From: Candidatus Dormiibacterota bacterium
Lineage (GTDB): Bacteria; Chloroflexota; Dormibacteria; DASZGP01
DNA length: 64,000 bases
NCBI GenBank assembly: GCA_036741395.1
Contig: DAINSI010000001.1
Span: 14,999 to 78,998 of the forward strand
Reading direction: 5' to 3'
In this document: positions 7,134 to 26,675 of the stretch, one piece after another
Layout of the letters: every line of letters begins with the position of its first letter
Numbering within the stretch: position 1 is the first letter of the stretch
Made by a program: the position numbers and the translations under genes
Notes under the pieces: generated by a model
What the model was told of the DNA's origin: nothing
Databases searched by the model: none
What the model saw: only the letters and a program-made list of their open reading frames with translations

Positions 7134-8291
7134 GTGGAGAGGATGAAAATGGATGGACGGCGCGCACCACAGGGGCTGGATGCGGAGGACCGCATCGCAT
7201 TTGGTCTGACCGCGCCACACCTGTTCTACCTGGTGATCTTTTCCATGACCGGTTGGGGATTTCTATCCAGTCACCTCCCCCTGGTGGTGCGCCTGCCACC
7301 CGGCGTGGTCCTCCTGTTCGGGGGCGCGATCCTGGCGTGGGGCCGCGTCGCCGGTCGCCCGGTCGACAGGTGGTTGTTGCTGTATGGCACCTACCGTCTG
7401 CGGCCGCGTCGCTCGGTTGCGCCTGCCACCGTCGTGGTACCACCAGGGATGGTGACAATCCCGGGCGCAGCTGTCCTGCAGCTCCGCCGAGCGCCGTCCG
7501 CGCGCGGGCCGAGGGCGAGGCGGGTGGCGTTCTTCTCGATGTGCGGTGGTACCGGGAAATCAACGCTCGCTGCCGAGACGGCGATCGGACTGGCGGCCGG
7601 GGCCTGGCGCTCAGAGCCGGGAGACTCGCCCACCCGGGTCGCCCTCCTCGACCTCGACACGCGCGCATCGTCGATGGCCATTCGCCTGGGCCTCGATGGC
7701 CCCACCCTGGACGACCTGCTAGCCACGCGAGGCCTCGATGAGGCGGCTTTCGAGAGATCCCTACTGCGCCACGAGAGCGGCGCCCGCGTCCTCCTCGGCC
7801 CGGCGCATGCGGTACAGCACCCTGGGGCGCAGGCCGTGGTTGCGCCGCTGCTGGCGCACATCGATGACCGGGAATTTGACGTGGTCGTGATCGATCTCGC
7901 CTCGGGTACCGGCGACCTCAACCGCGACGTCCTCGAAGTCGTGGATGCCATCTATTACGTCTTCGCGACAACACCCACCGGGGTCCATGACCTCTACCGC
8001 GGTGTGGCTGCACTGCGACGGCTGGGTCTTCGCGACAAGATCTGCCTGGTTGAAAACCGCGCCCACGGCACCGGCGACCTCACCGAGATACTGGGGGACC
8101 TGCGCGTAACCGTGACGGCGTCGATACCGTTGGCCCGGGCGCTGGCTGACGCCGAGCTACTGCACCGCCCCGCCGTGCTTGATAGTGAAAAGAGCCAGCA
8201 GTTCCTGTGGCCGCTGGCGGAGTCGGTCTTTCCTGACCTCTGGGCCCTGGAGACCGGCTTTCTGGCGGCAGCTGGCGGCGGCAATCTCTAG
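7134..8291 (+). CDS. Membrane-anchored MinD/ParA/CpaE-type P-loop ATPase with a PrgI/TcpE-like N-terminal domain
   Basis: 385-aa ORF. The N-terminus DAEDRIAFGLTAPHLFYLVIFSMTGWGFL plus a second TM helix is followed by VAFFSMCGGTGKSTLAAETA (Walker A) and FDVVVIDL (Walker B-like). Confidence 0.65.
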   Translation: MERMKMDGRRAPQGLDAEDRIAFGLTAPHLFYLVIFSMTGWGFLSSHLPLVVRLPPGVVLLFGGAILAWGRVAGRPVDRWLLLYGTYRLRPRRSVAPATVVVPPGMVTIPGAAVLQLRRAPSARGPRARRVAFFSMCGGTGKSTLAAETAIGLAAGAWRSEPGDSPTRVALLDLDTRASSMAIRLGLDGPTLDDLLATRGLDEAAFERSLLRHESGARVLLGPAHAVQHPGAQAVVAPLLAHIDDREFDVVVIDLASGTGDLNRDVLEVVDAIYYVFATTPTGVHDLYRGVAALRRLGLRDKICLVENRAHGTGDLTEILGDLRVTVTASIPLARALADAELLHRPAVLDSEKSQQFLWPLAESVFPDLWALETGFLAAAGGGNL

Positions 8292-8295
8292 GGAA

Positions 8296-9666
8296 TCAGA
8301 GGCCGCCGGTGCGCAGAGCGTGGACCAGCTGGCGCACACCCGTGGTGTTCTCCCCCTGGTCTGACCGCGCATAAATCCGCGCGCACTCCTTACCTGGGGT
8401 GACCGGCTCTGCAGTCCGTCGCACCAGCAGCAGCAACTCATTCCCGTCACGAACATCCTCGAGGCCGGCGCCGGGTCGCAGGTACGCCGGTGGCCCGTCA
8501 TCCGAAACGCTGTAGACACCACCGCGCGGCCGCCGCGGAGGGTCGTGCGGGAATTGATGCACGATCACCTGCGACGCGACACCGACGGGCGCGGTGGCGT
8601 CCTCCGCGGACAGCGCACCGAGGTCGGCATCCAGCATCTCCAGCAGGTGAAGCAACACCAGCGGTGCGCGGCCGGCCTCGACGTCCAGCTCCGTGGCCTC
8701 CGGCAATGAGGCAACCATGCGCGGGTTGACCTCGATGACCAGCGGGCCGTCTGCGGCGAGCACGAAGTCGACGCCGAAGAGGCCGCGGTAGTTGTTGGCG
8801 GCGAGGTCGGCGCCGAGCGCGCGCACGCAGCGCTCGATCTCTGCGCGGTGCGCCACCAGGCGCCCCTCCCCCCACGCGTTGCCGCACGAACCGAGCTGCT
8901 CCGGCGTCAGCCAATCGACGCCTGTGACCTGGCGGCACGGCTCGTTGACCGCGGGGGGGTGGCCCCCCTCGATACCGGCGCCGTCGCCCCGGAAGGCGAC
9001 GCCCGAAGCGGTGAAGGGAAGGCCGTCGATCCACTCCGCGACGCGCATGCTGCCGCTCCGCTCGCGCGCGTTGACGACGTCCAGCTGCGCCTGGTTGTCG
9101 ACCAACCAGGTGCGCTGCCCGGCGTTGCCGCGAGGACCCTGCACCACCACCGGCGCGCCAAAGTCCTCGACCAGGTCGGCGTACACCAGTGGCAGCCGGC
9201 GGGCGTCCCAGCGCGGTCGCGGCACCCCGGCGCGCTCCGCCGCGGCGACAAAGGCGAGCTTGTTCTCGTAGGCCCGCGCCGCGCTGCTGGGCGCGGCCAG
9301 CAGCCTCCCGCCCAGCGCCGTGACGGCCTCGGCGATGCGCTCGGACGGTTTGAACGAGAGCACCGCGGTGGGGCCCAGGCTGCGGAAGAACTCGCCGGTC
9401 GCCGGGTGGCGCAGGAGGTCCAGCGAGGACATGCCCGCGGTCGCCTCGGGTCCGCTGTGCTCCGAGAGACAGAAGACCTCGGTGCCGCGCCCGCGCAGCA
9501 CGTCGACGGCGTCGCTGGCGGAGATGCAGGCCAGCGCCGTCCCTGGCAGAGCGCGCTGCAGGCCGGCCGCCAGCCAGATGTCGTGGGCCGCCACCACCGG
9601 GCGCAGACCGTCCTCTTCCAGCCGCGCGGTGGCCAGCGCGACGGCGGCGTCCAGGGTTGGGCGCAT
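8296..9666 (-). CDS. ATP-grasp domain carboxylate-amine ligase (456 aa)
   Basis: Motifs YENKLAFVAAAERAGVPRP, VVVQGPRGNAGQRTW and LFGVDFVLAADGPLVIEVNPRM. Its ATG overlaps the stop of the upstream PLP gene (TGATG at 9664-9668). Confidence 0.8.
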   Translation of the reverse strand: MRPTLDAAVALATARLEEDGLRPVVAAHDIWLAAGLQRALPGTALACISASDAVDVLRGRGTEVFCLSEHSGPEATAGMSSLDLLRHPATGEFFRSLGPTAVLSFKPSERIAEAVTALGGRLLAAPSSAARAYENKLAFVAAAERAGVPRPRWDARRLPLVYADLVEDFGAPVVVQGPRGNAGQRTWLVDNQAQLDVVNARERSGSMRVAEWIDGLPFTASGVAFRGDGAGIEGGHPPAVNEPCRQVTGVDWLTPEQLGSCGNAWGEGRLVAHRAEIERCVRALGADLAANNYRGLFGVDFVLAADGPLVIEVNPRMVASLPEATELDVEAGRAPLVLLHLLEMLDADLGALSAEDATAPVGVASQVIVHQFPHDPPRRPRGGVYSVSDDGPPAYLRPGAGLEDVRDGNELLLLVRRTAEPVTPGKECARIYARSDQGENTTGVRQLVHALRTGGL

Positions 9667-10607
9667 CAGCGCAGGTCCTCCAGGCTGTCGAGGACACCCG
9701 CGAACGTTGCCAGCGGCAATTCCAGCCGCGGCGCGCTGGGGTCGACCACGGCGCGCCCGGTGAGCAGCAGACAGGCCTCCCGCACAGCATCCTCACGGGC
9801 CGCCATCCGCAGCCCGGCGAGGGCCGCCCAGCACTCCGGCGCAACCGCATGCCCGGACGCCCGCAGGGCCTGGCCGGCCTCGGCTATCGACGCGTCATCG
9901 ACCCACCACGCCTCCCCGCCACTGCGGCGGACCAGGTCGACGACCTCGCCGGCGCGCGCCGACACCTTGACCCCGAGGTCGCCGACCAGGCTCCGCCGCC
10001 CATCACCGGGGCGCCCGAACTCGCGGCTGAGCCCGTTGACCAGGCCGGCCTGCACGGGGTGGAGCGGGAGCCCGCGGCCGGCCTCGCGGAGGGCCGCGCC
10101 CACGGCCTGGAAGGTGGTGCCGCTGCTGGCGTACCCGAGCAGCGCGACACCTTCCGCGAGCTCCACGGCGAGCTCCTCGCCGAGGCCCGCGAAACCCTCC
10201 AGCGCCTCCACCGACTGCGACGGACGCAGGTCCGGCCAGCCACAGACGCGGCTGAGGCGGAGGGTGAAGTTGATGGGCTTGGTGGTGACGACCACGCGCC
10301 CCCCGGCGGCGCGGATGGCGGCCGCCCTGGCGGGCTCGGTCAGCGGCGAGAGCAACGCCACCACGGTCACCCCCGCGATCGAGCCCCGGGCGGCTGCCGC
10401 CAGCGCGGCGTTGCCCGAGGAGGAGATGACGGCGACGGCGTGGCCCCGCTCCTGGCACGCCGCAATCTGCCGCGCCGCGCCGCGGTCCTTGTGCGAGCCG
10501 GTGGGGTTGAGATCCTCGCGCTTGACCCAGAGCCGATCGACGCCGGCCCAGCGCGCCAGCGCCGCATCCGCCTGCAGCGGCGTGTGTCCCGGGGATGTCC
10601 CGCTCAT
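9666..10607 (-). CDS. Fold-type II PLP-dependent enzyme, threonine synthase/cysteine synthase-like
   Basis: Track ORF 9666-11105 was trimmed to the ATG at 10605-10607, because the upstream 166 aa are Arg/Cys/Pro-rich nonsense. The resulting 313 aa carry LWVKREDLNPTGSHKDRGA (PLP lysine) and ISSSGNAALAAA. Confidence 0.8.
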   Translation of the reverse strand: MSGTSPGHTPLQADAALARWAGVDRLWVKREDLNPTGSHKDRGAARQIAACQERGHAVAVISSSGNAALAAAARGSIAGVTVVALLSPLTEPARAAAIRAAGGRVVVTTKPINFTLRLSRVCGWPDLRPSQSVEALEGFAGLGEELAVELAEGVALLGYASSGTTFQAVGAALREAGRGLPLHPVQAGLVNGLSREFGRPGDGRRSLVGDLGVKVSARAGEVVDLVRRSGGEAWWVDDASIAEAGQALRASGHAVAPECWAALAGLRMAAREDAVREACLLLTGRAVVDPSAPRLELPLATFAGVLDSLEDLR

Positions 10608-10625
10608 CTCTCTACAATCGAGGTC

Positions 10626-10775
10626 ATGGCAGCTTGCCCCGAGTGCAGCACCGAGGTCCAGGCCGACGTGCCCCAGTTGGGGGAGATCCTGGTCTGCACC
10701 GGCTGCGGCGCGGACCTTGAGGTCATCAGCCAGGAACCGCTCACGTTCGAGGTCTACGAGCAAGAGGAAAAGTAG
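10626..10775 (+). CDS. LysW/ArgW-like zinc-ribbon amino-group carrier protein homolog (49 aa) with a non-canonical C-terminus
   Basis: MAACPECSTEVQADVPQLGEILVCTGCGADLEVISQEPLTFEVYEQEEK shows a CPxC...CxxC ribbon and a GEIxxCxxCGAxLEV core. Third codon positions are GC-rich. In the track it is visible only as the tail of shadow ORF 9657-10775. Confidence 0.7.
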   Translation: MAACPECSTEVQADVPQLGEILVCTGCGADLEVISQEPLTFEVYEQEEK

Positions 10776-12315
10776 GTGGCGGAAAAGTAGGTGGCGGAGA
10801 AGTGGGGAGGGTGGCCTCCCGCACCTGCTTCTTGAAGCCGGAGTCCTCATCGGCCCCCACGTAGTAGAGCGTGAAGAAGCCCGGGCACGCCGGCGACAGC
10901 AGCACCGAGTCGCCATCCCGCGCCACCTCGACCGCCCGCCGCACCGCGGCGCCGAAGTCCGCGACACGCTCCACCTCCACACCCTCGGCGAGCAGGTTGG
11001 CGACGATCGCCTCGGTGCCGCCGCCGGGCAGGGCCAGGGCCCTGCGCACGCGGCCCTGCGCGGTCCTCGCCAGTGAGGTGCTGTCCAGGCCCTTGTCCTC
11101 GCCACCGAGGATCCAGACCACGTCCTGCCCGAGCGTCCGCAGCGCCACCTCGCTGGCCGTCGGCGTGGTGCTGTTGAGGTCGTCGTAGTAGCTCACCCCG
11201 TCGCTCAACCAGATGAACTGGATGCGGTGCTTCAGCCCCCTGAAGTCACGGATCGCGCCGGTGACGGCCGGCGGCGCCACGCCCATCGCCAGGGCGGCGC
11301 AGGCCGCGGCGGCAACGTTGAGCGCGTTGTGCCGGCCGGCCACCGGGATGCCGGCGACCTCGATCGACCACGACCGCGCGGAGGCGTCCGGCCAGGGGCC
11401 GGCGGCATTGACGGTCTCATCGCCCGCGACCACGCCCGGCCGCGCTCGCACCGGTTCGTCGGCCGCACTCTTTAGGGTCTCGCCGAACCAGTACGTTGCG
11501 GCTGGCGTCAAAGCCGCGAGACCCCGGGTGACGTCAAGGTCGCCGTTGAGCACCGCCACGTCGCCCTCCTGCTGGTACCGCACCAGCCCCGCCTTGGCGT
11601 CGACATAGCCGTCCCAGCCGCCGTGCTCCTCGAGGTGGTTGGGGTAGATGTTGGTGAGCACCGCGACCCGCGGGCTGCGGTGCAGCATCTTGAGGTGGCG
11701 GTTGCTGATCTCGAGGACCAGGTGGGTGTCCGGCGTGGCCGTCTGCAAACGGTCCAGCGCCTGCTGGCCGTGGCGATCATTGCCGGCAAATATGACGTCC
11801 CGCCCGTCGGCGACCAGCATGTCGCGCAGCAACCGTGTGGTCGTCGACTTGCCCTGGCTGCCGCTGACGCCGACCACCGGCCCGGGTGACAGCCCGAGGT
11901 ACAGCTGGACCAGGCTGAAGAAGCGCTGCTGCAGCCCAGGACTCTGGGCGAGCGGGCGATTGCTCTCGTACAGGTACCAGCCCTGGGTGACCGCGATGGC
12001 GTCGGCGCCGTCGACGCCCTCCAGGTAGCGGTCGCGGAAGACCATGCGCACCGACTCCAGCAGCTTCTCCAGCATCCGTTCCCGGTCCGCCATCGGCCAG
12101 CCCACGTGCACCCGCTTGAAGGCGCGGGGAAAGGTCTCGGGGGTGCTGAAGTCGTGCCCCACGAGCCGCTTGAACCCGTGATCGGCGAGGAAGAGCAGCA
12201 GGTGTGCCCCCTCGACGCTGCCGGCACCCACGACGTGCACCTCCCGGTCGCGCAGCGCAAAGAGGTCATCCCACGACCCGATCCGGTCGCCCAGGTTGGT
12301 GGCCGCGCCCGCCAT
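10741..12315 (-). CDS. Mur ligase family protein, MurD-like
   Basis: 524-aa ORF with GVSGSQGKSTT, TNIYPNHLEEHG, GRHNALNVAAA, GLKHRIQ, DDLNSTTP and LLSPACPGF in MurD order. Its 3-prime end overlaps the convergent lysW-like ORF by 35 nt. Confidence 0.8.
   Translation of the reverse strand: MAGAATNLGDRIGSWDDLFALRDREVHVVGAGSVEGAHLLLFLADHGFKRLVGHDFSTPETFPRAFKRVHVGWPMADRERMLEKLLESVRMVFRDRYLEGVDGADAIAVTQGWYLYESNRPLAQSPGLQQRFFSLVQLYLGLSPGPVVGVSGSQGKSTTTRLLRDMLVADGRDVIFAGNDRHGQQALDRLQTATPDTHLVLEISNRHLKMLHRSPRVAVLTNIYPNHLEEHGGWDGYVDAKAGLVRYQQEGDVAVLNGDLDVTRGLAALTPAATYWFGETLKSAADEPVRARPGVVAGDETVNAAGPWPDASARSWSIEVAGIPVAGRHNALNVAAAACAALAMGVAPPAVTGAIRDFRGLKHRIQFIWLSDGVSYYDDLNSTTPTASEVALRTLGQDVVWILGGEDKGLDSTSLARTAQGRVRRALALPGGGTEAIVANLLAEGVEVERVADFGAAVRRAVEVARDGDSVLLSPACPGFFTLYYVGADEDSGFKKQVREATLPTSPPPTFPPPTFPLARRPRT
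10766..10810. repeat. 15-bp tandem repeat, two exact copies plus one degenerate copy
   Basis: GGAAAAGTAGGTGGC at 10766-10780 and 10781-10795, then GGAGAAGTGGGGAGG at 10796-10810. On the plus strand it contains the lysW-like TAG stop twice. On the minus strand it encodes PTSPP-PTFPP-PTFPL at the Mur ligase C-terminus. Confidence 0.9.
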
Positions 12316-12321
12316 TGCGGC

Positions 12322-13233
12322 TCAGCCGCCCAGCAGCACGGGGCGCCGCCAGCCCTGGTGTTGGTAGCGCCGGCCGTTGTCTTCCAGGCTCTCCTCGATC
12401 ACCCGGCGCTGGGTGCGACAGGCGTGGAGCACGGTGGCGTCGGACGTCATCAGGACGACGTGGCCGACCTTCTGTCCCCGGGGGGTGGCGAAGAGCAGGT
12501 CGCCCGCCGCGACCCCGCCGGCGACCACCCGCAGGCCCACACGCCGCTGGTCCCTGGTGTGCCGCGGCAGGAGCACCCCCGCGACCTCGCGGACGACGCG
12601 CTGCAGCAGGCCTGAGCAGTCGAAGCCCGCGTGGGTCGTCCCGCCCCAGACGTAGGGCACATCGAGTTCGGCGCGGGCGCCATCGATGACGGCCTGCGCC
12701 CCCACCCCCTGCGGCTGGGCTTCGCGCGCGGCGCCTTCGACAGGCCGGGGGATGTCCTTCCAGGAGGCACCGCCGCCCTCGGGCAGGTCGCGGAGGTCGG
12801 CGCGCGCGGCCCAGCCCATGGCCAGGTCGGGGCCCTGCACCAGCGCCCAGGCCCCGATGGCGCCCAACCGGCGCAGCGGACCGTCGGCGGCAAGGTACTG
12901 GGTCTGACGGCCCATCTCCTCACCAGCGCGCTCGGGCGTCCGCCAGAGGTCGAGCAGGCCCACGGCGATCTCCGACCATCCCTCCTCGAGCCCCGAGTCG
13001 GGATCCGCGGCGACCCTGAGGTCGACATCCGCGCCGTGCGCCCGCGCCAGCTCCGCCACCGCCCGTGCCTGGCGCGCCGTGAGCACCCTGCCGGAGACGA
13101 TCGTCCTACCATCGCCTTCCTCGAGGTGGAGCGCGACCTGCTGCAGGGCGTGGCCCGTCTGGGAGGCGGCGAAGTCGTCGAGGGCACCCGGGAGAAGACG
13201 GGAACCATCCCGCGTCGTGTCGGCGCTCGTCAC
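12322..13233 (-). CDS. NlpC/P60 (C40) family peptidase with an uncharacterised N-terminal domain
   Basis: 303-aa ORF. The C-terminal core reads PYVWGGTTHAGFDCSGLLQRV...GHVVLM. It ends 6 nt before the Mur ligase start. Confidence 0.85.
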   Translation of the reverse strand: MTSADTTRDGSRLLPGALDDFAASQTGHALQQVALHLEEGDGRTIVSGRVLTARQARAVAELARAHGADVDLRVAADPDSGLEEGWSEIAVGLLDLWRTPERAGEEMGRQTQYLAADGPLRRLGAIGAWALVQGPDLAMGWAARADLRDLPEGGGASWKDIPRPVEGAAREAQPQGVGAQAVIDGARAELDVPYVWGGTTHAGFDCSGLLQRVVREVAGVLLPRHTRDQRRVGLRVVAGGVAAGDLLFATPRGQKVGHVVLMTSDATVLHACRTQRRVIEESLEDNGRRYQHQGWRRPVLLGG

Positions 13234-13994
13234 GCCGCCGCCTCTTCGCCCTCCACCGCCCGGACCATCGCCACCAGCTCATCCAGGTTGGAGACGCGGG
13301 CGCAGTCTGGGTTGGCGAGGACGCCGTCGCGGTCGAGGAAGACGGCCTGCAGCCCCGCGGCACGCGCGCCCATGACGTCAGCCCAGTAGTTGTCGCCGAT
13401 GTGCCAGGTGTCGCGCGCCGGGACGCCCAGGCGGCGCAGGGCGATGTCCCAGATGCGTCCGTCGGGCTTCATCGCGCCGGCGTCGACCGAGGCCACGATG
13501 ACGTCGAAGTATTCGGTCAGGCCGTGCTGGCGGCAGAGCGACGGGAGCGTATCGACGAAATTGGAGACGATCGCCATCGGGATTCCCATACGACGCAGCT
13601 CCTCAAGCGCCGGCAGGGCGTCGGGGAATGCCTCCCACGCATCCGCGCTCCAGGCGCTGGTGAAGACCGCCTCGCCCAGCTCCGCGAGGCGCTCACCCTC
13701 CACGCCCAGCCCACGGAGTACGAGGAGGTTGTACTCGGTCCAGAACTCCCGGGCCAGGTCCATCGAGGCCTCGAAGTCGCGACCCTCCCGGGTGGCACGG
13801 ATGTAGAGCTCGTGGGCCGGACGGTGCGCCTGTGCGACCAGCTCCAGCGCGAACTCGTGGCCCTGCGCGGCGAGGATCCGACGGTAGAGCTCGGGGCCGT
13901 TCGGGGTGTGCCGCAGGAGTGTGTAGCCCATGTCGAAGCAGATCGCGCGCGGCCGCCGCATTTTCCAGAGCGTAGCAGCCGCAAGCCCGCTCAC
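13230..13994 (-). CDS. HAD-superfamily hydrolase
   Basis: 254-aa ORF; the start may be the second Met (MRRPRAICFDMGYTLL). Motif I reads FDMGYT, and later motifs are SNF, KPDGRIW and HIGDNYWADVMGARAAG. It overlaps the NlpC/P60 start by 4 nt. Confidence 0.75.
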   Translation of the reverse strand: MSGLAAATLWKMRRPRAICFDMGYTLLRHTPNGPELYRRILAAQGHEFALELVAQAHRPAHELYIRATREGRDFEASMDLAREFWTEYNLLVLRGLGVEGERLAELGEAVFTSAWSADAWEAFPDALPALEELRRMGIPMAIVSNFVDTLPSLCRQHGLTEYFDVIVASVDAGAMKPDGRIWDIALRRLGVPARDTWHIGDNYWADVMGARAAGLQAVFLDRDGVLANPDCARVSNLDELVAMVRAVEGEEAAA

Positions 13995-14021
13995 CGGTGC
14001 CCTCGCGGGAGGGCCCGGGCC

Positions 14022-15326
14022 CTATCCCAGCAGCGACTCCACGGCCGCGCCGTAGCTCCGCGCGGTGGTCGTGTAGACGTCGGCCAGGCGGGTCGCGGTG
14101 GCGTCCCAGCTGAAGTGCCCGGCAAGCTCCACGCCGGCGTCGCCCATGCGCCGCCGCAGCTCCTCGTCGCTGAGGAGGAGGTCGAGCGCGTGGGCGTAGG
14201 CGGCAGGTTCGTGCTCGCGGACGGTGAACCCCGTGGTGCCGTCGGCGACGACCTGGGTCAGGCCGCCCACGCGCGACGCCACCACCGGCGTCCCGCAGGC
14301 CTGGGCCTCGAGCGCCACCAGCCCGAACGACTCGCTGTAGGAGGGCACCACACAGACGTCGGCGAGGCTGTAGTAAGCGGGCAGCTCCGGGTGGTCGACG
14401 GCGCCCAGGAAGGTGACCCGGTCGGCGACGTCGAGGTCCGCTGCCAGCGCCCTCAGGCGTGCCCCCTCGCCGGCGAAGTCGCCCGCCTCGCTGACCCCGT
14501 TGCCGCTGTCCGCGCCCGCCACCAGCAGCCGCCGCGGCGATGTCGACGCCGGCAGCAGGGCCAGCGCGCGGATCGCGGTCTCGACGCCCTTGAGGCGCTC
14601 CAGCCTGCCGGTGAAGAGGATCACGCGCTCGTCGGCGCCCAGCCCCAGGCGCGCCCGCAGGGGCGCGGCGCGGGTGGGATGAAAGCGCTCGAGGTCGACC
14701 CCCAGGGGGACGACGTCGATGCACGAGCGGTCGGCGCCGTAGAGGTAGGCCAGGTCATCGACCTCGCGGACGGTGGGCGCGACCAGGCGGTTGCAGCTGC
14801 GCGCGATCTCCAGCTCGACAGCGATGCGCTGGTCGCTCTCGCGGCCGGCCCCCTCGGGGCGGTCGCGGTCCTTGACCCGGCCCAGGGTGTGCGCCATGTG
14901 GACCCAGGGGACTCCCCAGGCCTGGCTGAGGCGCCGCCCGACCCATCCGCTCAGCCAGTAGTGGCTGTGGACCAGGTCGAACGACTCCCCGGCGTCGCGG
15001 GCCCAGGCGTTGACCCCACGGTAGAACTCCGGCAGGTGATAGAAGAGGCCCGCCTTGTCCAGCTGGTGCTCGGGACCGGCGCTGACGTGGACCAGATGGC
15101 AACCCTCGGGGACGTCGAGGTCACGGGGCGACTGGGGGTACTCCTTGCGGGTGAAGATGACGCTGCGCAGGCCGCGACGGGCCAACTCCTCGGTGACCGA
15201 GCGGATGTACACGCTCATGCCGCCGTTCTCCGCCCCACCCACCTCGCTGTAGGGGCAGGAGTGCGCGGCGATGACGGCGACCGTCCGGGTCTTCTGCGCG
15301 CTGAGATCGCTCACGTCAGGATGCAA
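14022..15326 (-). CDS. mshA: GT4 glycosyltransferase, MshA-like (D-inositol-3-phosphate glycosyltransferase-like)
   Basis: 434-aa ORF that resembles MshA along its length as I recall that protein: VAVIAAHSCPY...GGMSVYIRS, HSHYWLSG, VHMAHTLGRVK, VVPSYSESFGLVALEAQACGTPVVAS. Confidence 0.75.
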   Translation of the reverse strand: MHPDVSDLSAQKTRTVAVIAAHSCPYSEVGGAENGGMSVYIRSVTEELARRGLRSVIFTRKEYPQSPRDLDVPEGCHLVHVSAGPEHQLDKAGLFYHLPEFYRGVNAWARDAGESFDLVHSHYWLSGWVGRRLSQAWGVPWVHMAHTLGRVKDRDRPEGAGRESDQRIAVELEIARSCNRLVAPTVREVDDLAYLYGADRSCIDVVPLGVDLERFHPTRAAPLRARLGLGADERVILFTGRLERLKGVETAIRALALLPASTSPRRLLVAGADSGNGVSEAGDFAGEGARLRALAADLDVADRVTFLGAVDHPELPAYYSLADVCVVPSYSESFGLVALEAQACGTPVVASRVGGLTQVVADGTTGFTVREHEPAAYAHALDLLLSDEELRRRMGDAGVELAGHFSWDATATRLADVYTTTARSYGAAVESLLG

Positions 15327-15362
15327 CCGCGACCGATCTCCACTTATGCCAATTCTGAGGGT

Positions 15363-15426
15363 GGCGAATTAGCTCACGCCAGTTCCGGTGTCGGGGCGAA
15401 CTGGCTCACGCCAGTTCGACCGTCAG
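15363..15426. repeat. Approximately 32-bp tandem duplication at the 3-prime end of the GNAT gene
   Basis: GCGAATTAGCTCACGCCAGTTC (15364-15385) versus GCGAACTGGCTCACGCCAGTTC (15396-15417), with 2 mismatches. The second copy contains the GNAT stop codon and forms the hairpin CGAACTGG-CGTGAG-CCAGTTCG on the minus strand. Confidence 0.7.
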
Positions 15427-16455
15427 GTGCACCAGGTCCACGTCGGTCGCACCCAGGTCGTATTTGTATTTCTCATCGCCGCGCAGGAAGTCCAGCTCCT
15501 CCAGGCCGGCCTCGATGGCCAGCCGGATCTCCTCACTCATCAGCACCAGGCCGGGGCTGAGGCTGAGCATCCCGGGCTCGTACCCCGAGTTGTAGAGCAG
15601 GAGCTTGTTGCCATAGACGAAGCCCAACACCGCCGCCACCGGGCGGTCCTGGTGGACCAGCAGGCGGAGGCAGAGCCAGCCCTCCTCGAGCAGGTGCAGA
15701 CAGATGTGCCGGAAGAACCGCTGGACGTCGGGGGTGAGGAAGTCGGCCTTGGCCCGGGTGCTGGCGGCGTGGAGGCGGAAGAACGCCTCGAGGTCCTCCT
15801 CCAGGCTCGCGGCGTCGGACTCCTTGACGGTCCAGCCGCCCGCATCCTCGAGGCGCCGGCGCTTGCGCCGGAGTTCGTGGCGGTCCTTCTTACGCAGAGT
15901 GGCGAAGTAGGCCTCGAAGGCGCCCGGCAGGGTGATCCGCGGGCTGACCTCCTCGTTCTCGATGTTGTAGCGCCGATCCATGTCCCGCGCCGCCTGCGTC
16001 AGGGCGGCCAGGGTGACGCCGTCGGAGCGCAGGAAATGGAGGTCCAGGACCAGGCCCGGTGACTCCAGGCAGTGCTCCAGGAAGGCGCGCCCAACCGCTT
16101 CCTCGTAGCCCCCCTCGACCAGGAATCCGGTGTAGTCCGTCACCTCCAGGCCGCCGCCGAAGCGGACCACCGGGAATCCCCCCGCCTGCTTGCGGTAGGT
16201 CGAGGCCAGGCCGACCATTCGGTCCTGGTGACGGAAGGCCAGCAGGTGGAGGTCGGCGTCGCCACCGAGCTCACGCCACCAGGCGTGCTGCCAGTGGTGG
16301 GTCATGAAGATGTTGTCCTCGGCCGACCGCCGCTCGAGGTCCTCCCACTCGGTGCGCAGGTCATCGAAACCTGAAGCGTCGCGGTGGACCTCCGTGGTGA
16401 TTTCTCCCACGGCAAGCCGGCGGCCGGCGCCCTGGAATTCGGCGGCGGCACCCAT
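15406..16455 (-). CDS. GNAT-fold acyltransferase, CelD/BcsL (FemAB-like) type
   Basis: The ORF runs to 16515. The ATG at 16455 (MGAAAEFQG...) is preferred because it avoids overlap with the divergent GT28 gene. FMTHHWQHAWWRELG and the overall architecture are typical of the CelD-like GNAT family. Confidence 0.7.
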   Translation of the reverse strand: MGAAAEFQGAGRRLAVGEITTEVHRDASGFDDLRTEWEDLERRSAEDNIFMTHHWQHAWWRELGGDADLHLLAFRHQDRMVGLASTYRKQAGGFPVVRFGGGLEVTDYTGFLVEGGYEEAVGRAFLEHCLESPGLVLDLHFLRSDGVTLAALTQAARDMDRRYNIENEEVSPRITLPGAFEAYFATLRKKDRHELRRKRRRLEDAGGWTVKESDAASLEEDLEAFFRLHAASTRAKADFLTPDVQRFFRHICLHLLEEGWLCLRLLVHQDRPVAAVLGFVYGNKLLLYNSGYEPGMLSLSPGLVLMSEEIRLAIEAGLEELDFLRGDEKYKYDLGATDVDLVHLTVELA

Positions 16456-16480
16456 GCCAAGTATCCTACGCACCGAACCG

Positions 16481-17638
16481 ATGGCGCCCCGGATCCTCTT
16501 CCTCTTCTCCGACACCGGTGGGGGTCACCGGGCGTCGGCCAACGCCGTCAATCGGGCCCTCGAGCTGGAGTATCCCGGGCGCTTCGAGGTCGAGCTTCTC
16601 GACCCCTTCGTGCAGGGCGGGGGTCCGCTGCTGGGCTGGATCGTCTACCGCTACAACTTCATGCTCAAGCACCTGCCGCGGACGTACGGCTTCATCTTCC
16701 ACGCCACCAACAACCGCGCCGTGATGCGCCTGGCGATCCGCATGTTCGGCCACCAGGTACGACCCGGCATGAAGCAGCGCATCCAGGAGATGCGGCCCGA
16801 GGGGATCGTCTCCTTCCACCCCCTGACCAACCACGTGACCGTCGAGGTGATGGACGAGGTGGGGCTGAAGGCGCCCTTCATCACAGTGGTCACGGACATG
16901 GTCGACCTGCACCGCTTCTGGCTGACGCGCCGCGCCGACCTCGTTGTCGTCCCCTCCGCCGAGGCCCGCCGCTACTGCATCAAGGTCGGCCTGGATCCCC
17001 GCCGGGTCTACGTCGAGGGTCTCCCCGTGAACCCCAACTTCAGCGGCCCGGCAACGCAGGCGGAGCGCCGGGAGATGCGCCAGAAGCTGGGCTTCGAGGA
17101 CCGGCCCACGCTGCTGCTGGCGGCCGGGGGCGAGGGCGCCGGCCGGCTGGGCGCGTTTGCCAAAGCCCTCGACAACGCGGACCTCGGGCTCCAGTTGATC
17201 GTCGTCTGCGCCCGCAACGAGAAGCTGCGCAAGAAGCTCGCCGCCCGCCGGTGGAAGGGCCCGGTGCACGCGCTCGGCTTTGTCGAAAACATGCCCGAGC
17301 TGATGCGCGCCGCCGACGCCATCGCGTCCAAGGCCGGCCCGGGCACCATCACCGAGGCGCTGGTCAGCGGGCTGCCGATCTTCCTCACCGGCTTCGTCCC
17401 CGGCCAGGAGGAGGGCAACGTCCGCTATGTGGAGGAACAGGGGGTCGGCTTCTACACCCCCAGCCCGCGCAAGCTGGTCAAGGCCATCCGTGAACACATG
17501 ATCGCGGACCCGCCGGCCTTCGACCGCATGCGCGGCCGCGCCGAGAAGGTCGCCCAGAAGGATTCATCGGTCGAGATCGCGCAGCTGATCGCGGCCACCG
17601 TCGACCCCAACCTGCCCCGAAGCGACGACCTCGACTGA
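16481..17638 (+). CDS. MGDG synthase/UgtP-like (GT28) diacylglycerol glycosyltransferase
   Basis: Track ORF 16304-17638 was trimmed to the ATG at 16481, giving 385 aa. The N-terminus reads ILFLFSDTGGGHRASANAV, and the C-terminal GT-B motif reads SKAGPGTITEALVSGLPIFL...GQEEGN. Confidence 0.8.
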   Translation: MAPRILFLFSDTGGGHRASANAVNRALELEYPGRFEVELLDPFVQGGGPLLGWIVYRYNFMLKHLPRTYGFIFHATNNRAVMRLAIRMFGHQVRPGMKQRIQEMRPEGIVSFHPLTNHVTVEVMDEVGLKAPFITVVTDMVDLHRFWLTRRADLVVVPSAEARRYCIKVGLDPRRVYVEGLPVNPNFSGPATQAERREMRQKLGFEDRPTLLLAAGGEGAGRLGAFAKALDNADLGLQLIVVCARNEKLRKKLAARRWKGPVHALGFVENMPELMRAADAIASKAGPGTITEALVSGLPIFLTGFVPGQEEGNVRYVEEQGVGFYTPSPRKLVKAIREHMIADPPAFDRMRGRAEKVAQKDSSVEIAQLIAATVDPNLPRSDDLD

Positions 17639-20543: not shown

Positions 20544-20953
20544 GGGGTCGGTCCCATCCGGAAGCGGATGTCGGTGACCACCTTGTCGCCGATGACCTCG
20601 TTGAGCTGGTCGATGATCAGCTGACGCTGGAGGTGGAGTTGGTGGCCCAGCGCGGGGCTGTCGGTCTCCACCGTGACGCGGCCGCGGTTGTACGCCGTGG
20701 GATGGGCGCCCGCGGCCACCGCGTCACCGACGACGCCGGCCCACGCCCCCATGACCTGGAGGTGGCGGGCGCGGGTCTTCAGTCCCAGGCGCGCCAGCGT
20801 GGGCATGATCAGTTCGCCGATCGGCTGGGGGCCGTCATCGCCGCGCACCACCCGGCGCGACCGGGGCAGGGAGTCGAACACCGGCGCGTCCCGCGGGGCT
20901 CGGGGGGTCTTCTGCCGCGCGTCACCGTCGCCGCGGGGCGTCACGCGCTCCAC
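20540..20953 (-). CDS. DUF721 domain protein (DciA-like)
   Basis: 137-aa ORF in the conserved position immediately after recF. VMGAWAGVVGDAVAAGAHPTAYNRGRVTVETDSPALGHQLHLQRQLIIDQLN matches the DUF721 pattern. Confidence 0.7.
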   Translation of the reverse strand: MERVTPRGDGDARQKTPRAPRDAPVFDSLPRSRRVVRGDDGPQPIGELIMPTLARLGLKTRARHLQVMGAWAGVVGDAVAAGAHPTAYNRGRVTVETDSPALGHQLHLQRQLIIDQLNEVIGDKVVTDIRFRMGPTP

Positions 20954-22050
20954 CGCTGCACCCGGCCGCGGGCGACTTCGCGGGTGTTGACGCGCTCCGC
21001 GAAGCCCGCCGGGAAGTAGCCGCTCTCGGCCGAGGTGATGACCGACTGCGGCGATTCCTCGACCGCCTGCAGGAGGTGCTCCCGACGGGGCGCGTCCAGC
21101 TCCGACATGACGTCGTCGAGGAGCAGCACCGGGGCGCGACCACCCGCTCCCAGGACATCCACCTCGGCCAGCTTGAAGGCCAGGATCGCGGTGCGCTGCT
21201 GCCCCTGCGAGGCGTGGGCCGATGCCGTCAGGCCGCCCAGGCGAAACTCGAGGTCGTCGCGGTGAGGCCCGGCCACCGTCACCCCGCGGGCCAGCTCCTC
21301 ACGCTGGCGGGAGCGCAGGTTGGCGGCCAGCGAGGCCGCCGCCTCGTCGCCGAGCGCGACGCTGGGGGCGTAGGCGACGTCGAGGTCCTCGCCCGGGGCC
21401 ACCTCGCGGTAGCGCCGCGCGATCCGCCCCGAGATGTCGTCCACGAACGCCGCCCGGCGGTCCATGATGTCGCCGCCCACGCGGCTCAACTCGTCGGTCC
21501 ACCAATCCAGCGCGGAGGGCGGCTCGAGGTCCTCGGCGACCCGCTTGAGCAGCTGGTTGCGCTGCTCCAGGAGGCGGGTGTACCGGCTGAGATTCTCGGC
21601 GTAGGTGCCATCCAGCTGCGTCAGCACTCCGTTGAGCAGCTTGCGCCGCCCCTCCCCCGAACCGCGCAGCAGCACCATCTCCTCGGGGTGGAAGAGCACC
21701 GTGCGCACCAGCCCGCTCACCTTCTGCGGCGACACCGGCCGCTCGTCCAACCGGATCGTCCGCCTGGTCCGGGTGCTGCCGGGGTCACGCTCCAACCGCA
21801 CCTCGATCGCCCGCGTCTCGCTGCCGGTCTCGAACTCCATCACCACCCGGCCGCCGGCCTGCTCCCACATCACCATCTCGGCCAGCACCGAAGCCCGCGG
21901 TGACCGCGATGTCGCCGCCAGGTAGATCGCCTCGAGCAGGTTGGTCTTGCCCTGCGCGTTGGCCCCCAGGAAGAGGTTGACGCCGGGCGCCAGCTCCACC
22001 GTCTCCTTCATGTAGTTGCGGAAGGCGTAGAGCGATATCGATATCAGCAC
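20941..22050 (-). CDS. recF: DNA replication and repair protein RecF
   Basis: 369-aa ORF with FRNY, GANAQGKTNLLEAIYL (Walker A), SQGQQRT and LLLDDVMSELD. Confidence 0.95.
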   Translation of the reverse strand: MLISISLYAFRNYMKETVELAPGVNLFLGANAQGKTNLLEAIYLAATSRSPRASVLAEMVMWEQAGGRVVMEFETGSETRAIEVRLERDPGSTRTRRTIRLDERPVSPQKVSGLVRTVLFHPEEMVLLRGSGEGRRKLLNGVLTQLDGTYAENLSRYTRLLEQRNQLLKRVAEDLEPPSALDWWTDELSRVGGDIMDRRAAFVDDISGRIARRYREVAPGEDLDVAYAPSVALGDEAAASLAANLRSRQREELARGVTVAGPHRDDLEFRLGGLTASAHASQGQQRTAILAFKLAEVDVLGAGGRAPVLLLDDVMSELDAPRREHLLQAVEESPQSVITSAESGYFPAGFAERVNTREVARGRVQRWSA

Positions 22051-22108
22051 GGGCGAGCGTTCCCCACTACGCTCATACGAACAATTGTACGCCCCTACCG
22101 AAGGGGAG

Positions 22109-22501
22109 TCACCACACCGTTGGCGCGGCGGGGTGACGGTGGGAGCGCAGTCGCTGGTCCTTGGTCACCAACCCCCAGCCGTGCTCGACCGCGGTGGCGT
22201 AGATCAGGCGATCCGCGGGGTCACCCGGGAACGTCTGCGGCAGGGCGACCGCGGCGGCCGCGATCGCGGGCGTGACCGCCAGGGTGCGGACCTGGCCGGA
22301 CAGCCGCCTGAGCCACGCTCCGACCGGTACGGTGAGCCGGACCCGGTCATGGTGGGCCAGCCACGCCAACTCAAACCAGGTGATGTCGGCCACCGCCAGT
22401 TCCTCTGCCGCGTCCACCGCGGCGGCGGCGGTCGCGCTGAGGCGCTCGGGCTCGGCGGACCACCAGTGGAGAACGTGGGTGTCGAGCAGGACCGTGCTCA
22501 A
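22109..22501 (-). CDS. vapC: PIN-domain toxin, VapC family
   Basis: 130-aa ORF. The N-terminus LLDTHVLHWW and the acidic PIN residues are present. It overlaps the upstream antitoxin gene by 4 nt. Confidence 0.85.
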   Translation of the reverse strand: MSTVLLDTHVLHWWSAEPERLSATAAAAVDAAEELAVADITWFELAWLAHHDRVRLTVPVGAWLRRLSGQVRTLAVTPAIAAAAVALPQTFPGDPADRLIYATAVEHGWGLVTKDQRLRSHRHPAAPTVW

Positions 22502-22743
22502 GAGAGATCCCAGGCGGCTCCGGTGCTGAAAATGTCCTCGTCGTCGGCCGACGTCATGGCCACCCCCTGGAGGAGGCCCTTGAGGGAGTGCGGCCCGGTT
22601 GCCGGGACGAGGCGGGCGACCGTGCGGCCGTGCTTGGTGATCTCGACCTCCTCGCCGTCGGCGACCTGGTCGAGAAGTGCCAGCAGCCGGGCGCGGGCCT
22701 CGGTTGCCGTCATATTTTTAGTCATATGTGCACTATAGCGCAC
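22498..22743 (-). CDS. Phd/YefM-type antitoxin
   Basis: MTKNMTATEARARLLALLDQVADGEEVEITKHGRTVARLVPA. The true start is probably the ATG at 22725, which would give a leaderless mRNA, rather than 22743. Confidence 0.8.
   Translation of the reverse strand: MRYSAHMTKNMTATEARARLLALLDQVADGEEVEITKHGRTVARLVPATGPHSLKGLLQGVAMTSADDEDIFSTGAAWDLS
22728..22743 (-). promoter_or_regulatory. Near-palindrome containing a TATAGT -10-like hexamer upstream of the antitoxin ATG
   Basis: GTGCACTATAGCGCAC is palindromic apart from one symmetric mismatch pair. On the minus strand TATAGT (22737-22732) ends 6 nt before the ATG at 22725. Confidence 0.3.
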
Positions 22744-22875
22744 AGTCCTGGCGGTGCACGAGGCGCGCGCCCGGCGTCCACGGTGTCGGGAGGCGCCCCG
22801 GACCGCGCGATAGCAGACGGCCGGGACCGGATGACGCGTCCCGCCCCGTCCCGTCTGTACCCATGGCCCCTTACG

Positions 22876-24021
22876 CTACATAGCGACGCGAACGGGCATG
22901 ATCACGTAGGTGTAGTCGTCCTTCCCGGCGGGTTTCACGACCCCCGGGCTGAGGGGGCCGTTGAAGCTGAGGACGCACTTGTCCGAGCCCAGCAGGCCCA
23001 GGACGTCGAGCAGGTAGCGCGAGTTGAAGGCGATCTGGATGTCGGCGCCCTCGATCTCGGCGCTCACCGATGCCTCGCTGGAGCCCACCTCGCTGGTGGT
23101 CGCGGAGATCGAGATCTCGCCGGCCTCGGTCTTGATGCGGACGACGTTGGCGCTGTCGCGGGCGAAGATGGCCACGGCGCGGGCGCGCTCGTGGAGCTCC
23201 TTGGTCGACAGCGTGATGGTGGTGTTGGCGGGCGCCGGGGGGATCACCTGGGAGTAGTTGGGGTAGGTGCCCTCGATCAGACGGGACATCACCTCGACAC
23301 CCTCGGCCTTGAAGAAGACGTGGTTGCGGGAGCGCCCCATGGCCATCTCCACGCGGCCGTCGCCCTTGAGCACCCGGGCCAACTCCTGCAGCGCCCGGGC
23401 GGGGATGATCACCGAGTCGGCGCCGTCGGCCCCCGGCTCGTTGCCGCTGGATCCCTCGGCCGAAACGGCGCTAAGGGTCTTGACCGCGAGGCGGTGGCCG
23501 TCGGTGGCGGCCAGGGTCAGGGTCTCCGGGCCCAGCTGGGTGTAGACGCCGGTCAGCACCGGGCGGCCCTCGTCACTGCTGGCGGCGACCACGGTCTGCT
23601 CGATCGCGGGGAGCAGCTCAGACTGCTGCAACTCGACCCGCAGCCCATCCTCCCGCGCCGGCAGGGCGGGGAACTCGGCGGGGTCGATGCCCTTGATCTT
23701 GACGTTGTGGTACGGGCCGCAGTTGACGCTTAGGGTCTGGGTTTTGGTGTCCAGCTCGATGTCCATCTGCTTCTCTTTGAGCTGGGCCACGAACTCGGTG
23801 AGGAGCCGGGCCGGCAGGGTCACCGATCCCTCCGAGTGGACCTCGGCGGCGACGTGGTTGACGATGCCGATCTCGAGGTTGGTGCCGGTCAGGCGCAGCC
23901 CCTTGTCCGACGTCTCGAGGAGGACGTTGTTGAGGATCGGCAGGGTGGTCCGGGGACTCACGGCCCGCGAGACCACCTGCAGTGCCTGGCTGAGCGCTTC
24001 GGGCGAACAGGTCAGCTTCAT
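22876..24021 (-). CDS. dnaN: DNA polymerase III beta sliding clamp
   Basis: 381-aa ORF. MKLTCSPEALSQALQVVSRAVSPRTTLPILNNVLLE and the three-domain length match DnaN, and it lies directly downstream of dnaA. Confidence 0.95.
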   Translation of the reverse strand: MKLTCSPEALSQALQVVSRAVSPRTTLPILNNVLLETSDKGLRLTGTNLEIGIVNHVAAEVHSEGSVTLPARLLTEFVAQLKEKQMDIELDTKTQTLSVNCGPYHNVKIKGIDPAEFPALPAREDGLRVELQQSELLPAIEQTVVAASSDEGRPVLTGVYTQLGPETLTLAATDGHRLAVKTLSAVSAEGSSGNEPGADGADSVIIPARALQELARVLKGDGRVEMAMGRSRNHVFFKAEGVEVMSRLIEGTYPNYSQVIPPAPANTTITLSTKELHERARAVAIFARDSANVVRIKTEAGEISISATTSEVGSSEASVSAEIEGADIQIAFNSRYLLDVLGLLGSDKCVLSFNGPLSPGVVKPAGKDDYTYVIMPVRVAM

Positions 24022-24309
24022 GACTTACACACCCATCCCATTTAAGTGACCGCCTGCAGATTAACTATTCGTAGTAGGGATAGGGCGGTGTACAACTGGG
24101 AAAAGCCCCGCTTCCGTATTCCGAATCCCGACAAATTATAGGTCGCGATGCTGTGGACGGCGGCGCTACAAAAGTTCGTAAGTCGGGGCCCGGGGGAGGT
24201 TGTTGGACGCCCGCACAGCTTCTCCCCCGTTTCCAACAGTCGCGCCTGTGGCCTCGATCGCCGGGTGGGGTGCTGGTAAGTGATGAGTGCGTCGGTGTCG
24301 GCCATCATG
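24022..24309. other. dnaA-dnaN spacer with locally AT-rich stretches and weak DnaA-box-like words (possible oriC or DUE component)
   Basis: 24040-24150 is about 50% GC by eye, against about 70% background (TTTAAGTGA, AGATTAACTATTCGTAGTAGGGATAGG, ACAAATTATAGG). Only degenerate boxes are present, such as TGTGGACGG at 24152-24160. Confidence 0.35.
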
Positions 24310-25662: not shown

Positions 25663-25689
25663 TTTAAAGGCCTTCCCCCCGCTTCCGAC

Positions 25690-26090: not shown

Positions 26091-26107
26091 GCGCAGGGGC
26101 CTTCCTC

Positions 26108-26440: not shown

Positions 26441-26447
26441 AAACTCG

Positions 26448-26663: not shown

Positions 26664-26675
26664 TTTGGCCTGCCA

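Follow-up and report, generated by a model that had tools for sequence, protein, structure and literature searches.

A LysW-fold small protein with a lysine-terminated tail and its conserved linkage to a MurD-like ligase and an NlpC/P60 peptidase in Dormibacteria and other phyla

Organization of the cassette

The window analysed here, a stretch of 64,000 nucleotides from contig DAINSI010000001.1 of a Candidatus Dormiibacterota bacterium, has a G+C content of 69% and contains a compact group of five genes arranged around a 49-codon open reading frame (ORF) for a protein resembling the amino-group carrier LysW. The other four genes lie on the opposite strand and encode an ATP-grasp enzyme, a ThrC-like enzyme dependent on pyridoxal phosphate (PLP), a MurD-like Mur ligase and an NlpC/P60 cysteine peptidase (Table 1). 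The close homologues named at NCBI come from metagenome-assembled genomes (MAGs) of Candidatus Dormibacteria or Dormibacteraeota, or from MAGs labelled Chloroflexota. An earlier note, made from the letters of the window, had described the same minus-strand neighbours, in agreement with the domain assignments and coordinates obtained here, and had suggested that the group might represent a carrier-tethered amino-acid or peptide pathway.

The genes are closely packed. The PLP and ATP-grasp genes share a TGATG overlap and are thus translationally coupled, as had been claimed, and the two spacings given in the earlier note are both correct: 18 nt lie between the start of the small ORF and that of the PLP gene, which are head-to-head on opposite strands, and 133 nt between the ligase and PLP genes. 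The small ORF also overlaps 35 nt at the 3′ end of the ligase ORF, or its last ~12 codons. This overlap exists because of a lineage-specific tandem duplication at 10766-10803, where 2.5 copies of a 15-nt repeat, GGAAAAGTAGGTGGC, duplicate the 3′ end of the small ORF and, read on the minus strand, extend the ligase C-terminally by PPTFP-PPTFP. At another locus, L005, the ligase stops 65 nt short of the small ORF, and hence there is no dual coding. A scan for promoters and terminators around the small ORF of the window found none.

A conserved gene with a LysW-type zinc ribbon

Translation of the ORF at 10626-10775 on the plus strand gives MAACPECSTEVQADVPQLGEILVCTGCGADLEVISQEPLTFEVYEQEEK, identical to the 49-residue sequence with a CPxC...CxxC zinc ribbon reported previously. 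The Pfam model PF21344 (Zn_ribbon_LysW) matches this protein with an E-value of 3.8e-13 and 49.3 bits, well above its gathering cutoff of 27, and thereby places it in the LysW family, as had been surmised. Both equivalog models remain below their cutoffs, with 43.8 bits against 53.2 for TIGR01206 (lysW) and 28.4 bits against 75 for NF041070 (LysW/ArgW). A homology search returned 42 homologues, nearly all of them 49 residues long, at 65-90% identity, in which the final eight residues, EVYEQEEK, are invariant.

The length of only 49 residues, the antisense position within an operon and over the ligase 3′ end, and the lack of a promoter-like site would all be expected if the ORF were spurious, a mere antisense reading frame of a genome rich in G+C. 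The strength of the Pfam match argues against this explanation, as does the finding that in other phyla the gene stands free, runs in the same direction as its neighbours and has a ribosome-binding site. In L036, a Deltaproteobacteria MAG of low G+C content, for example, a free-standing homologue is preceded by AGGAG 7 nt upstream, and an NlpC/P60 gene begins 3 nt after it. Furthermore, variation in the tail is synonymous only: when codons 42-49 were compared with those of the window, 2-4 synonymous and no non-synonymous changes were found in 13 of 13 Dormibacteria comparisons. A spurious ORF is refuted as far as comparative data can do so, and its probability is negligible. Judged from these comparisons, the ORF is a genuine conserved gene and not a chance ORF.

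Dual coding with the ligase 3′ end was considered as a cause of the tail invariance and rejected, since L005 keeps the tail unchanged in the absence of any overlap. The substitution pattern indicates that the tail motif is under purifying selection, independently of the overlap between the two ORFs.

A lysine-terminated tail class

Canonical LysW carries its substrate on the C-terminal glutamate of an EDWGE tail, where it is loaded by the RimK-type ligase LysX and processed by LysZ, LysY, LysJ and LysK, and the homologues of LysW are covalent carriers. The small protein ends not in EDWGE but in E-V-Y-E-Q-E-E-K. Alignment of the profile of this EEK-tail class with that of 20 EDWGE-type LysW sequences by hhalign gave a probability of 99.6% and an E-value of 3.5e-24; the aligned part ends ahead of the tails, of which the EEK type is the shorter by 4 residues.

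The breadth of the class was assessed in two ways. A Dormibacteria profile had 786 matches among 1.84 billion representative proteins, and tails were tabulated for the 120 proteins of at most 100 residues among the best 150 matches. The canonical EDWGE occurred 28 times in this census, and a second class, [F/Y/L/I]-E-E-E-(E)-K, was represented by 23 proteins. In addition, one genome per GTDB species was scanned with the degenerate DNA pattern C-x2-[DE]-x-[DE]-x5-P-x6-[DE]-[EQDH]-[DE]-E-K-stop. Among 57 distinct sequences of the class, Glu45, Glu48 and Lys49 are invariant across phyla, which bears out the earlier description of a tail ending in lysine (Lys49 in 57/57), and position 44 is always aromatic (Phe in 37, Tyr in 16, Trp in 4) despite being free in the search pattern. 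From these sequences the tail class is [F/Y/W]-E-[E/Q]-E-E-K. One divergent Dormibacteria lineage has the tail AFVDEEK, and no tail motif was found in the viral contigs scanned. The small protein is, on its profile matches and tail, a LysW-fold protein of a separate tail class and not LysW proper.

Could it nevertheless be a canonical LysW or ArgW serving lysine or arginine synthesis of the α-aminoadipate (AAA) type, with lysX/Z/Y/J/K elsewhere in the genome? Its database name is LysW, and its globular domain is clearly homologous. Yet the equivalog scores lie under both cutoffs, the tail lacks EDWGE, is shorter by four residues and ends in lysine rather than glutamate, and a Mur ligase set always adjoins the gene, with no LysX, LysZ, LysY, LysJ or LysK gene beside it among the loci with annotated neighbours. 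Nor does the 64-kb window hold AAA-pathway domains: AA_kinase, Semialdhyde_dh, Aminotran_3, Peptidase_M20 and RimK domains are absent by Pfam from the 46 predicted window proteins scanned, nearly all of which are at least 200 residues long. No EDWGE-stop occurs anywhere in the window, and a scan of 8-17 kb with Rfam gave no family and hence no lysine riboswitch. The lack of AAA-pathway genes claimed in the earlier note therefore holds within the window and the annotated neighbouring loci, and a canonical LysW is very improbable here.

Other tails were also seen among LysW-fold small proteins, many of them long poly-acidic runs with W, D and E (e.g. P0168, P0177, P0186, P0205 and P0233), and two or three LysW-like domains occur in tandem in P0118, P0121 and P0227. 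These tail classes and tandem forms may represent further uncharacterised classes of carrier.

Linkage of the small gene across phyla

In the scanned GTDB species genomes, the tail motif was present at 56 loci, which by title belong to Dormibacterota, Chloroflexota (Anaerolineae, Caldilineae, Ardenticatenales and Ca. Epilinea), Actinomycetota (Thermoleophilia and Gaiellales), CSSED10-310, Planctomycetota, and proteobacteria-labelled MAGs (titled Rickettsiales, Proteobacteria, Deltaproteobacteria or Myxococcales). Gene linkage was counted by tblastn and iterated hidden Markov model searches with the window proteins in 8-kb blocks around 63 loci. The Mur ligase adjoins the small gene in 53 of these, NlpC/P60 in 48, the PLP enzyme in 43 and the ATP-grasp enzyme in 33, with all four enzymes present in 25. 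At the ten loci without a ligase match, the block or contig breaks off within ~1.3 kb on the side that should hold the cassette. All loci with sufficient flanking sequence (53/53) have the ligase next to the small gene, and there is no counter-example.

Gene content is retained although the order varies from lineage to lineage. The CSSED10-310-like and proteobacteria-labelled groups have the order small gene, NlpC/P60, ligase, PLP enzyme and ATP-grasp, and Chloroflexota have NlpC/P60, ligase, small gene, PLP enzyme and ATP-grasp, while the Dormibacteria contigs have a common order of eight genes, in which the small gene lies inverted between those for the ligase and the PLP enzyme. That the set is kept through such rearrangement across phyla, with the proteins 30-45% identical, speaks for a functional link and against simple inheritance of synteny. 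The small ORF is thus conserved, falls in the LysW family and, as the co-occurrence of the same enzyme set across several phyla indicates, is linked to its enzymes, in keeping with what the earlier note had anticipated, and none of the outcomes that the note named as refuting its view was observed.

Not every enzyme is constant, the PLP and ATP-grasp genes being missing in some lineages. L036 has a three-gene form, in which miaA and a convergent Cu-ATPase gene flank the small gene, NlpC/P60 and the ligase, and the operon of L059 starts in the same way up to the end of the block. L030 has an Asp/Glu racemase fusion, NlpC/P60 and the ligase, with a convergent small gene and neither a PLP nor an ATP-grasp gene, and at L048 and L021 a GT2 glycosyltransferase gene is followed by the ligase, again with a convergent small gene. 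The invariant partners of the small protein are, from this gene census, the MurD-like ligase and the NlpC/P60 peptidase, which are often fused: at least 13 proteins of 793-905 residues are NlpC/P60-Mur ligase fusions.

One contig titled Candidatus Solibacter sp. (L012, DATMMS010000002.1) holds a cassette of the Dormibacteria type: its small protein ends in YEQEEK, and its PLP enzyme shares 67% identity with that of the window. The contig is probably mis-binned or the cassette recently transferred.

The MurD-like ligase

The best model for the ligase is murD (TIGR01087), as its description as MurD-like would predict. The score of 222.4 bits exceeds the cutoff of 211.95, and the alignment is partial, with only residues 136-480 aligned to model positions 94-422. 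The nearest structures in the PDB are also MurDs (best 3lk7, E 1.5e-36). The N-terminal domain, which falls outside the murD-model alignment, is longer than that of MurD. In the ligase the P-loop is intact, as are the counterparts of R302, T321 and K348, and the canonical C-terminal segment of MurD (SPACASLDxF.NF) is replaced by SPACPGFFTLYY; an SPACPxFF form of this segment is present in 28 of the 47 ligases from such cassettes, referred to here as module ligases. In E. coli MurD, the replaced segment carries S415, L416 and F422 of the D-glutamate site.

Module ligases of other phyla score 200-380 bits against the window ligase, and any MurD in the PDB at most 130, consistent with the module ligases forming an orthologous group separate from MurD. 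No genes of the division and cell wall (dcw) cluster lie beside the ligase among the annotated loci, and a published study of Chloroflexota and Dormibacteria holds nothing on murD in Dormibacteria.

The NlpC/P60 peptidase and D-glutamate-related genes

Direct reading of the NlpC/P60 protein reveals no N-terminal hydrophobic stretch, and the enzyme is probably cytoplasmic. Its catalytic cysteine (in DCSG) and histidine are kept. Pfam gave no match on the N-terminal 178 residues, for which the fold search alone was informative: the AlphaFold2 (AF2) model, with a predicted confidence (pLDDT) of 79.5, has an SH3b-like N-terminal region. The top Foldseek matches over most of the length are dipeptidyl-peptidase VI (DPP VI; 4r0k and 3npf) and cyanobacterial γ-D-Glu-L-diamino-acid endopeptidases (2evr and 2hbw), in both cases with template-modelling (TM) scores of 0.53-0.55, and YkfC of B. 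cereus (3h41) matches more weakly, with a TM-score of 0.38. The predicted architecture, SH3b plus NlpC/P60, is that of the γ-D-Glu-L-diamino-acid endopeptidases.

Several accessory genes are also related to D-glutamate. In 9 loci the small gene and NlpC/P60 have between them a gene resembling D-glutamate cyclase (PF14336, up to 220 bits), and the same domain is fused to NlpC/P60 in L006 and L016; in a literature search on D-glutamate cyclase and DUF4392, the papers listed were all on mammals. Upstream of NlpC/P60 in L030 is a 683-residue protein with an N-terminal Asp/Glu racemase domain followed by ~450 residues without a family match, which were tested as a possible ATP-grasp region and rejected. 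In 11 proteobacteria-labelled loci a NagZ-like GH3 gene stands directly upstream of the small gene and ends ~20 nt before it, a neighbour that hints at a link to cell-wall recycling in this Rickettsiales-, Proteobacteria- or Deltaproteobacteria-labelled lineage. Farther upstream of GH3 in those MAGs are a glyoxalase-fold gene and two unannotated genes.

These resemblances to cell-wall enzymes raise the question as to whether the small protein is a carrier at all. It might instead be a non-covalent regulator or adaptor, an acidic zinc ribbon that binds ordinary enzymes of peptidoglycan precursor synthesis or recycling, for instance as a mimic of a stem peptide that ends in ...D-Glu-Lys. The enzymes would then be MurD, a YkfC-like tripeptide peptidase, a PLP enzyme supplying a D-amino acid and a dipeptide ligase, and this would fit the score and annotation of the ligase as MurD, the likeness of the peptidase to the recycling enzymes YkfC and DPP VI, the adjoining NagZ-like gene and the glycosyltransferases that are often nearby. 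However, the LysW homologues of the small protein are covalent carriers, and the strict invariance of its last three residues, including the terminal lysine, fits a chemical role better than binding. The ligase-hydrolase fusions and three-gene operons outside dcw suggest a dedicated substrate cycle, and the ligase departs from MurD in both its N-terminal domain and its C-terminal motif. A regulator of this kind is considered unlikely, though more probable than the other alternatives to a carrier discussed here.

The PLP enzyme and the ATP-grasp enzyme

The best NCBIfam and PDB matches of the PLP enzyme are threonine synthases, all far under their family cutoffs; PRK08197, its best model, gives 64.7 bits against a cutoff of 303. 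The PLP-lysine motif NPTGSHKDRG is present in the window enzyme, and NPTGSHKDR or GSHK in 36 of 41 long homologues. By these comparisons the enzyme is best described as ThrC-like rather than as ThrC.

Searches with the models of known carrier-loading and tail-modifying ligases left the ATP-grasp enzyme far below both cutoffs, with 16.5 bits against 275.6 for LysX (TIGR02144) and 27.7 bits against 143.4 for RimK (TIGR00768). The top 50 Foldseek matches of its AF2 model (pLDDT 92) are all biotin carboxylase, PurD or PurK, with TM-scores of 0.5-0.6 and 12-19% identity, and the E-x-N-P-R motif is retained. As modelled, the enzyme is of the biotin-carboxylase/PurD/PurK type and not LysX- or RimK-like. 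Catalytic motifs are conserved in all four enzymes of the cassette.

The presence of these two enzymes bears on a second alternative, in which the cassette makes no biosynthetic product and instead runs a regulatory cycle of tail modification, with the ligase as writer and the peptidase as eraser. The small protein would then be the final target of a reversible C-terminal change, as in S6 glutamylation by RimK, the loss and re-addition of tyrosine on tubulin, or Pup deamidation and ligation. Minimal operons such as L036, with the small protein, ligase and hydrolase only, would suit such a cycle, and the acidic tail is like those of S6 and tubulin, in whose systems papain-fold peptidases serve as erasers. 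Most lineages, however, add the PLP enzyme and a second ligase, which are typical of metabolite synthesis, the D-Glu-cyclase-like and racemase genes point to small-molecule flux, and there is no obvious conserved downstream effector. This cycle is accordingly rated improbable, slightly more so than the non-covalent regulator.

Proposed mechanism

The combined evidence points to a LysW-type carrier whose tail and enzyme set are both new, in an undescribed protein-tethered amino-acid or peptide pathway. In the reading favoured here, to which a probability of about 0.5 is assigned, the five genes form a conserved cassette around a LysW-fold carrier that the ligase loads and the NlpC/P60 peptidase unloads, with D-glutamate or a relative as the probable cargo. 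The small protein would act as a covalent carrier or scaffold with a flexible acidic tail ending in E-E-K. The MurD-like ligase would use ATP to join an amino acid to this tail by an amide bond, D-glutamate or one of its close relatives being the most likely choice, and the YkfC/DPP VI-like peptidase would hydrolyse a γ-glutamyl-type bond, thereby releasing the product and regenerating the carrier. In most lineages, the PLP enzyme and ATP-grasp enzyme would either synthesise the amino acid that is loaded or elaborate it on the tether. The PLP enzyme needs a free α-amine, and would therefore either prepare the cargo or act on cargo held through its side chain.

Mur ligases form an amide bond from an activated carboxylate and the amine of an amino acid, and YkfC-type enzymes cleave γ-D-glutamyl bonds to a diamino acid. 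From this amide chemistry and bond specificity, together with the carrier role of LysW proteins, we infer that the ligase may load the tail and the peptidase unload it; covalent loading, the assignment of loader and unloader, the participation of D-glutamate and the nature of the product are all reached by such reasoning. The cassette as a whole probably handles chemistry of the D-Glu type.

Several points weigh against the loaded-carrier reading. The covalent adduct is putative, and the ligase scores above the cutoff of a MurD equivalog model. The D-Glu-contact residues S415, L416 and F422 of E. coli MurD are not conserved in the ligase, and therefore the loaded amino acid may not be D-glutamate. 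The PLP enzyme cannot act on an α-amine blocked by an amide, which makes its role on a LysW-style adduct problematic. The small gene of Dormibacteria runs antisense to the transcript of the operon and has no detectable promoter-like site, and the records bearing the motif are nearly all titled as MAGs. The carrier-tethered pathway proposed in the earlier note stands in part: the LysW fold and the conserved linkage speak for it, whereas its covalent tethering, PLP replacement step and release by an amidase are putative, and the ATP-grasp and PLP enzymes, which it had included, are not invariant, and the ATP-grasp enzyme is not LysX/RimK-like.

If the tail is loaded, four modes can be envisaged. 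Attachment at the ε-amine of Lys49 and attachment at the γ-carboxyl of Glu48 or Glu47, as in LysW, are both possible and are given equal, though limited, weight. Attachment at the α-carboxyl of Lys49 is somewhat less likely, as is the idea that Lys49 is a cap removed by the peptidase to expose a LysW-like C-terminal glutamate.

A bolder proposal, offered only tentatively, is that this would be the first LysW-fold carrier with a Mur-family loader and an NlpC/P60 unloader, assembling or processing an amino acid or peptide that contains D-glutamate. In its most extreme form, attachment at the ε-amine of Lys49 would make the small protein a 'carboxyl-group carrier protein', with the α-amino acid end of the cargo left free for the ThrC-like PLP enzyme. 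Such attachment, if true, would have a polarity opposite to that of all known amino-group carrier proteins.

Comparison with known systems

LysW/ArgW amino-group carrier protein systems act in lysine and arginine biosynthesis in Thermus and Sulfolobus and in secondary-metabolite clusters of Streptomyces. Like them, the cassette has a homologous zinc-ribbon domain of ~50 residues that continues into a flexible, acidic C-terminal tail, and the gene for this protein is grouped with those for an ATP-dependent carboxylate-amine ligase and for a hydrolase of amides. It differs in its shorter, Lys-terminated tail and in having a Mur-family ligase and NlpC/P60 where those systems have RimK-type LysX and M20-type LysK; it is also without the kinase, reductase and aminotransferase LysZ, LysY and LysJ, and its ATP-grasp enzyme is of another type. 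To our knowledge, amino-group carrier proteins have so far been found only with LysX-type loaders and processing enzymes of the ArgB/C/D/E type.

With peptidoglycan synthesis and recycling (MurD, YkfC and DPP VI) the cassette shares the MurD-like ligase, the SH3b and NlpC/P60 peptidase and the D-Glu-related accessory genes. Unlike those systems, it never occurs in a dcw context among the loci examined, its ligase and hydrolase are fused in some lineages, and it is always linked to a LysW-like protein; we know of no peptidoglycan pathway that uses one. The ligase, too, is unlike MurD in its divergent, longer N-terminal domain and the loss of the canonical C-terminal motif.

Cyanophycin synthetase CphA1 has ATP-grasp and Mur-ligase-like domains that act on one primer, and the cassette recalls it in pairing an ATP-grasp with a Mur-family ligase, both of which would act on carboxylates at a single acidic peptide end. 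Sequence comparison shows no affinity (22-30 bits against cyanophycin synthetase models with cutoffs of 850-877). In contrast to CphA1, the ligases of the cassette are separate proteins accompanied by a PLP enzyme and a cysteine peptidase, and a ribosomally made small protein takes the place of the polymer primer. Finally, in the pearlins (TglA), RimK-S6, tubulin tyrosination and Pup/Dop/PafA, an ATP-dependent ligase and a papain-fold or other hydrolase add or remove an amino acid at the C-terminus of a ribosomally made protein; by analogy, these share the concept with the cassette, and the enzymes are not homologous.

No account of the cassette emerged from literature searches on LysW, AmCP (amino-group carrier protein), Mur ligase, ATP-grasp, NlpC, amidoligase and PF21344. 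The earlier note, which knew of no described pathway with this composition, thus agrees with the searchable literature, and the chemistry could be new. Public annotation names the genes 'LysW' and 'MurD', which is probably over-annotation and would mislead metabolic reconstructions of AAA-pathway lysine synthesis and counts of peptidoglycan genes. If the carrier reading is true, a second, phylogenetically broad class of carrier would extend the concept of protein-tethered small-molecule metabolism, and Mur ligases and NlpC/P60 peptidases would be linked to a protein substrate for the first time. The cassette is also a defined five-gene target in lineages almost without characterised biochemistry (Dormibacterota, Anaerolineae, Thermoleophilia and CSSED10-310).

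Flanking DNA

Upstream of NlpC/P60, HAD phosphatase, GT4 glycosyltransferase and FemAB-like (GNAT) genes form a co-directional block, whose synteny is kept in every Dormibacteria locus with sufficient sequence on that side. Outside Dormibacteria none of the three was found, except for one weak GT4 match in L039, and they were rejected as core members; whether they belong to the system is uncertain. A divergent gene for an MGDG-synthase-like GT28 lies beside this Dormibacteria-specific upstream block (window 13230-17638). Glycosyltransferase genes adjoin the cassette also in L048 and L021 (GT2) and in L039 (GT4).

Table 1. Features of the window and of other loci mentioned in the text.
Feature	Locus	Positions	Strand	Evidence or remark
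ATP-grasp enzyme, 456 aa, biotin-carboxylase/PurD/PurK structural type (predicted)	window	8296..9666	-	ATP-grasp_3
ThrC-like fold-type II PLP enzyme, 313 aa from ATG at 10607	window	9666..10607	-	PALP, 128 bits
LysW-fold zinc-ribbon protein, 49 aa, putative carrier/substrate	window	10626..10775	+	Pfam PF21344
MurD-like Mur ligase paralogue, 524 aa	window	10741..12315	-	Mur_ligase_M and Mur_ligase_C domains; TIGR01087
NlpC/P60 cysteine peptidase, YkfC/dipeptidyl-peptidase VI type	window	12322..13233	-	NLPC_P60 domain at residues 192-287
HAD phosphatase	window	13230-13994	-	stop overlaps NlpC/P60 start (GTGA)
MshA-like GT4	window	14022-15326	-	394 bits against cutoff of 462
Acetyltransf_6/FemAB-like (GNAT) protein	window	15406-16515	-	domain models
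recF	window	20941-22050	-	
dnaN	window	22876-24021	-	
dnaA	window	24310-25662	-	
yidC	window	26676-27665	+	
jag	window	27720-28448	+	
parB and parA	window	34950-36667	-	
PF14336 fused to NlpC/P60	L006	2256-4067		
PF14336 fused to NlpC/P60	L016	2221-4032		
PF14336 D-glutamate-cyclase-like domain	L041	1585-2454		by NlpC/P60 gene
Asp/Glu racemase fusion	L030	277-2328		upstream of NlpC/P60
NagZ-like GH3 gene	L013	4866-5993		precedes small gene

The region 20941-36667 is the neighbourhood of the chromosomal replication origin, and the cassette lies ~10-15 kb from dnaA. A common gene for a UvrD/AddA-like helicase stands beside the cassette in L001, L004 and L005, the first of which also has DciA and recF genes. 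On the far side of the ATP-grasp gene, these three loci carry a Tad/type-II-secretion-like set (CpaE-like ATPase, T2SSE and T2SSF), and the corresponding position of the window, 7134-8291, holds only a CpaE/ParA-like ORF with a weakly PrgI-like N-terminus.

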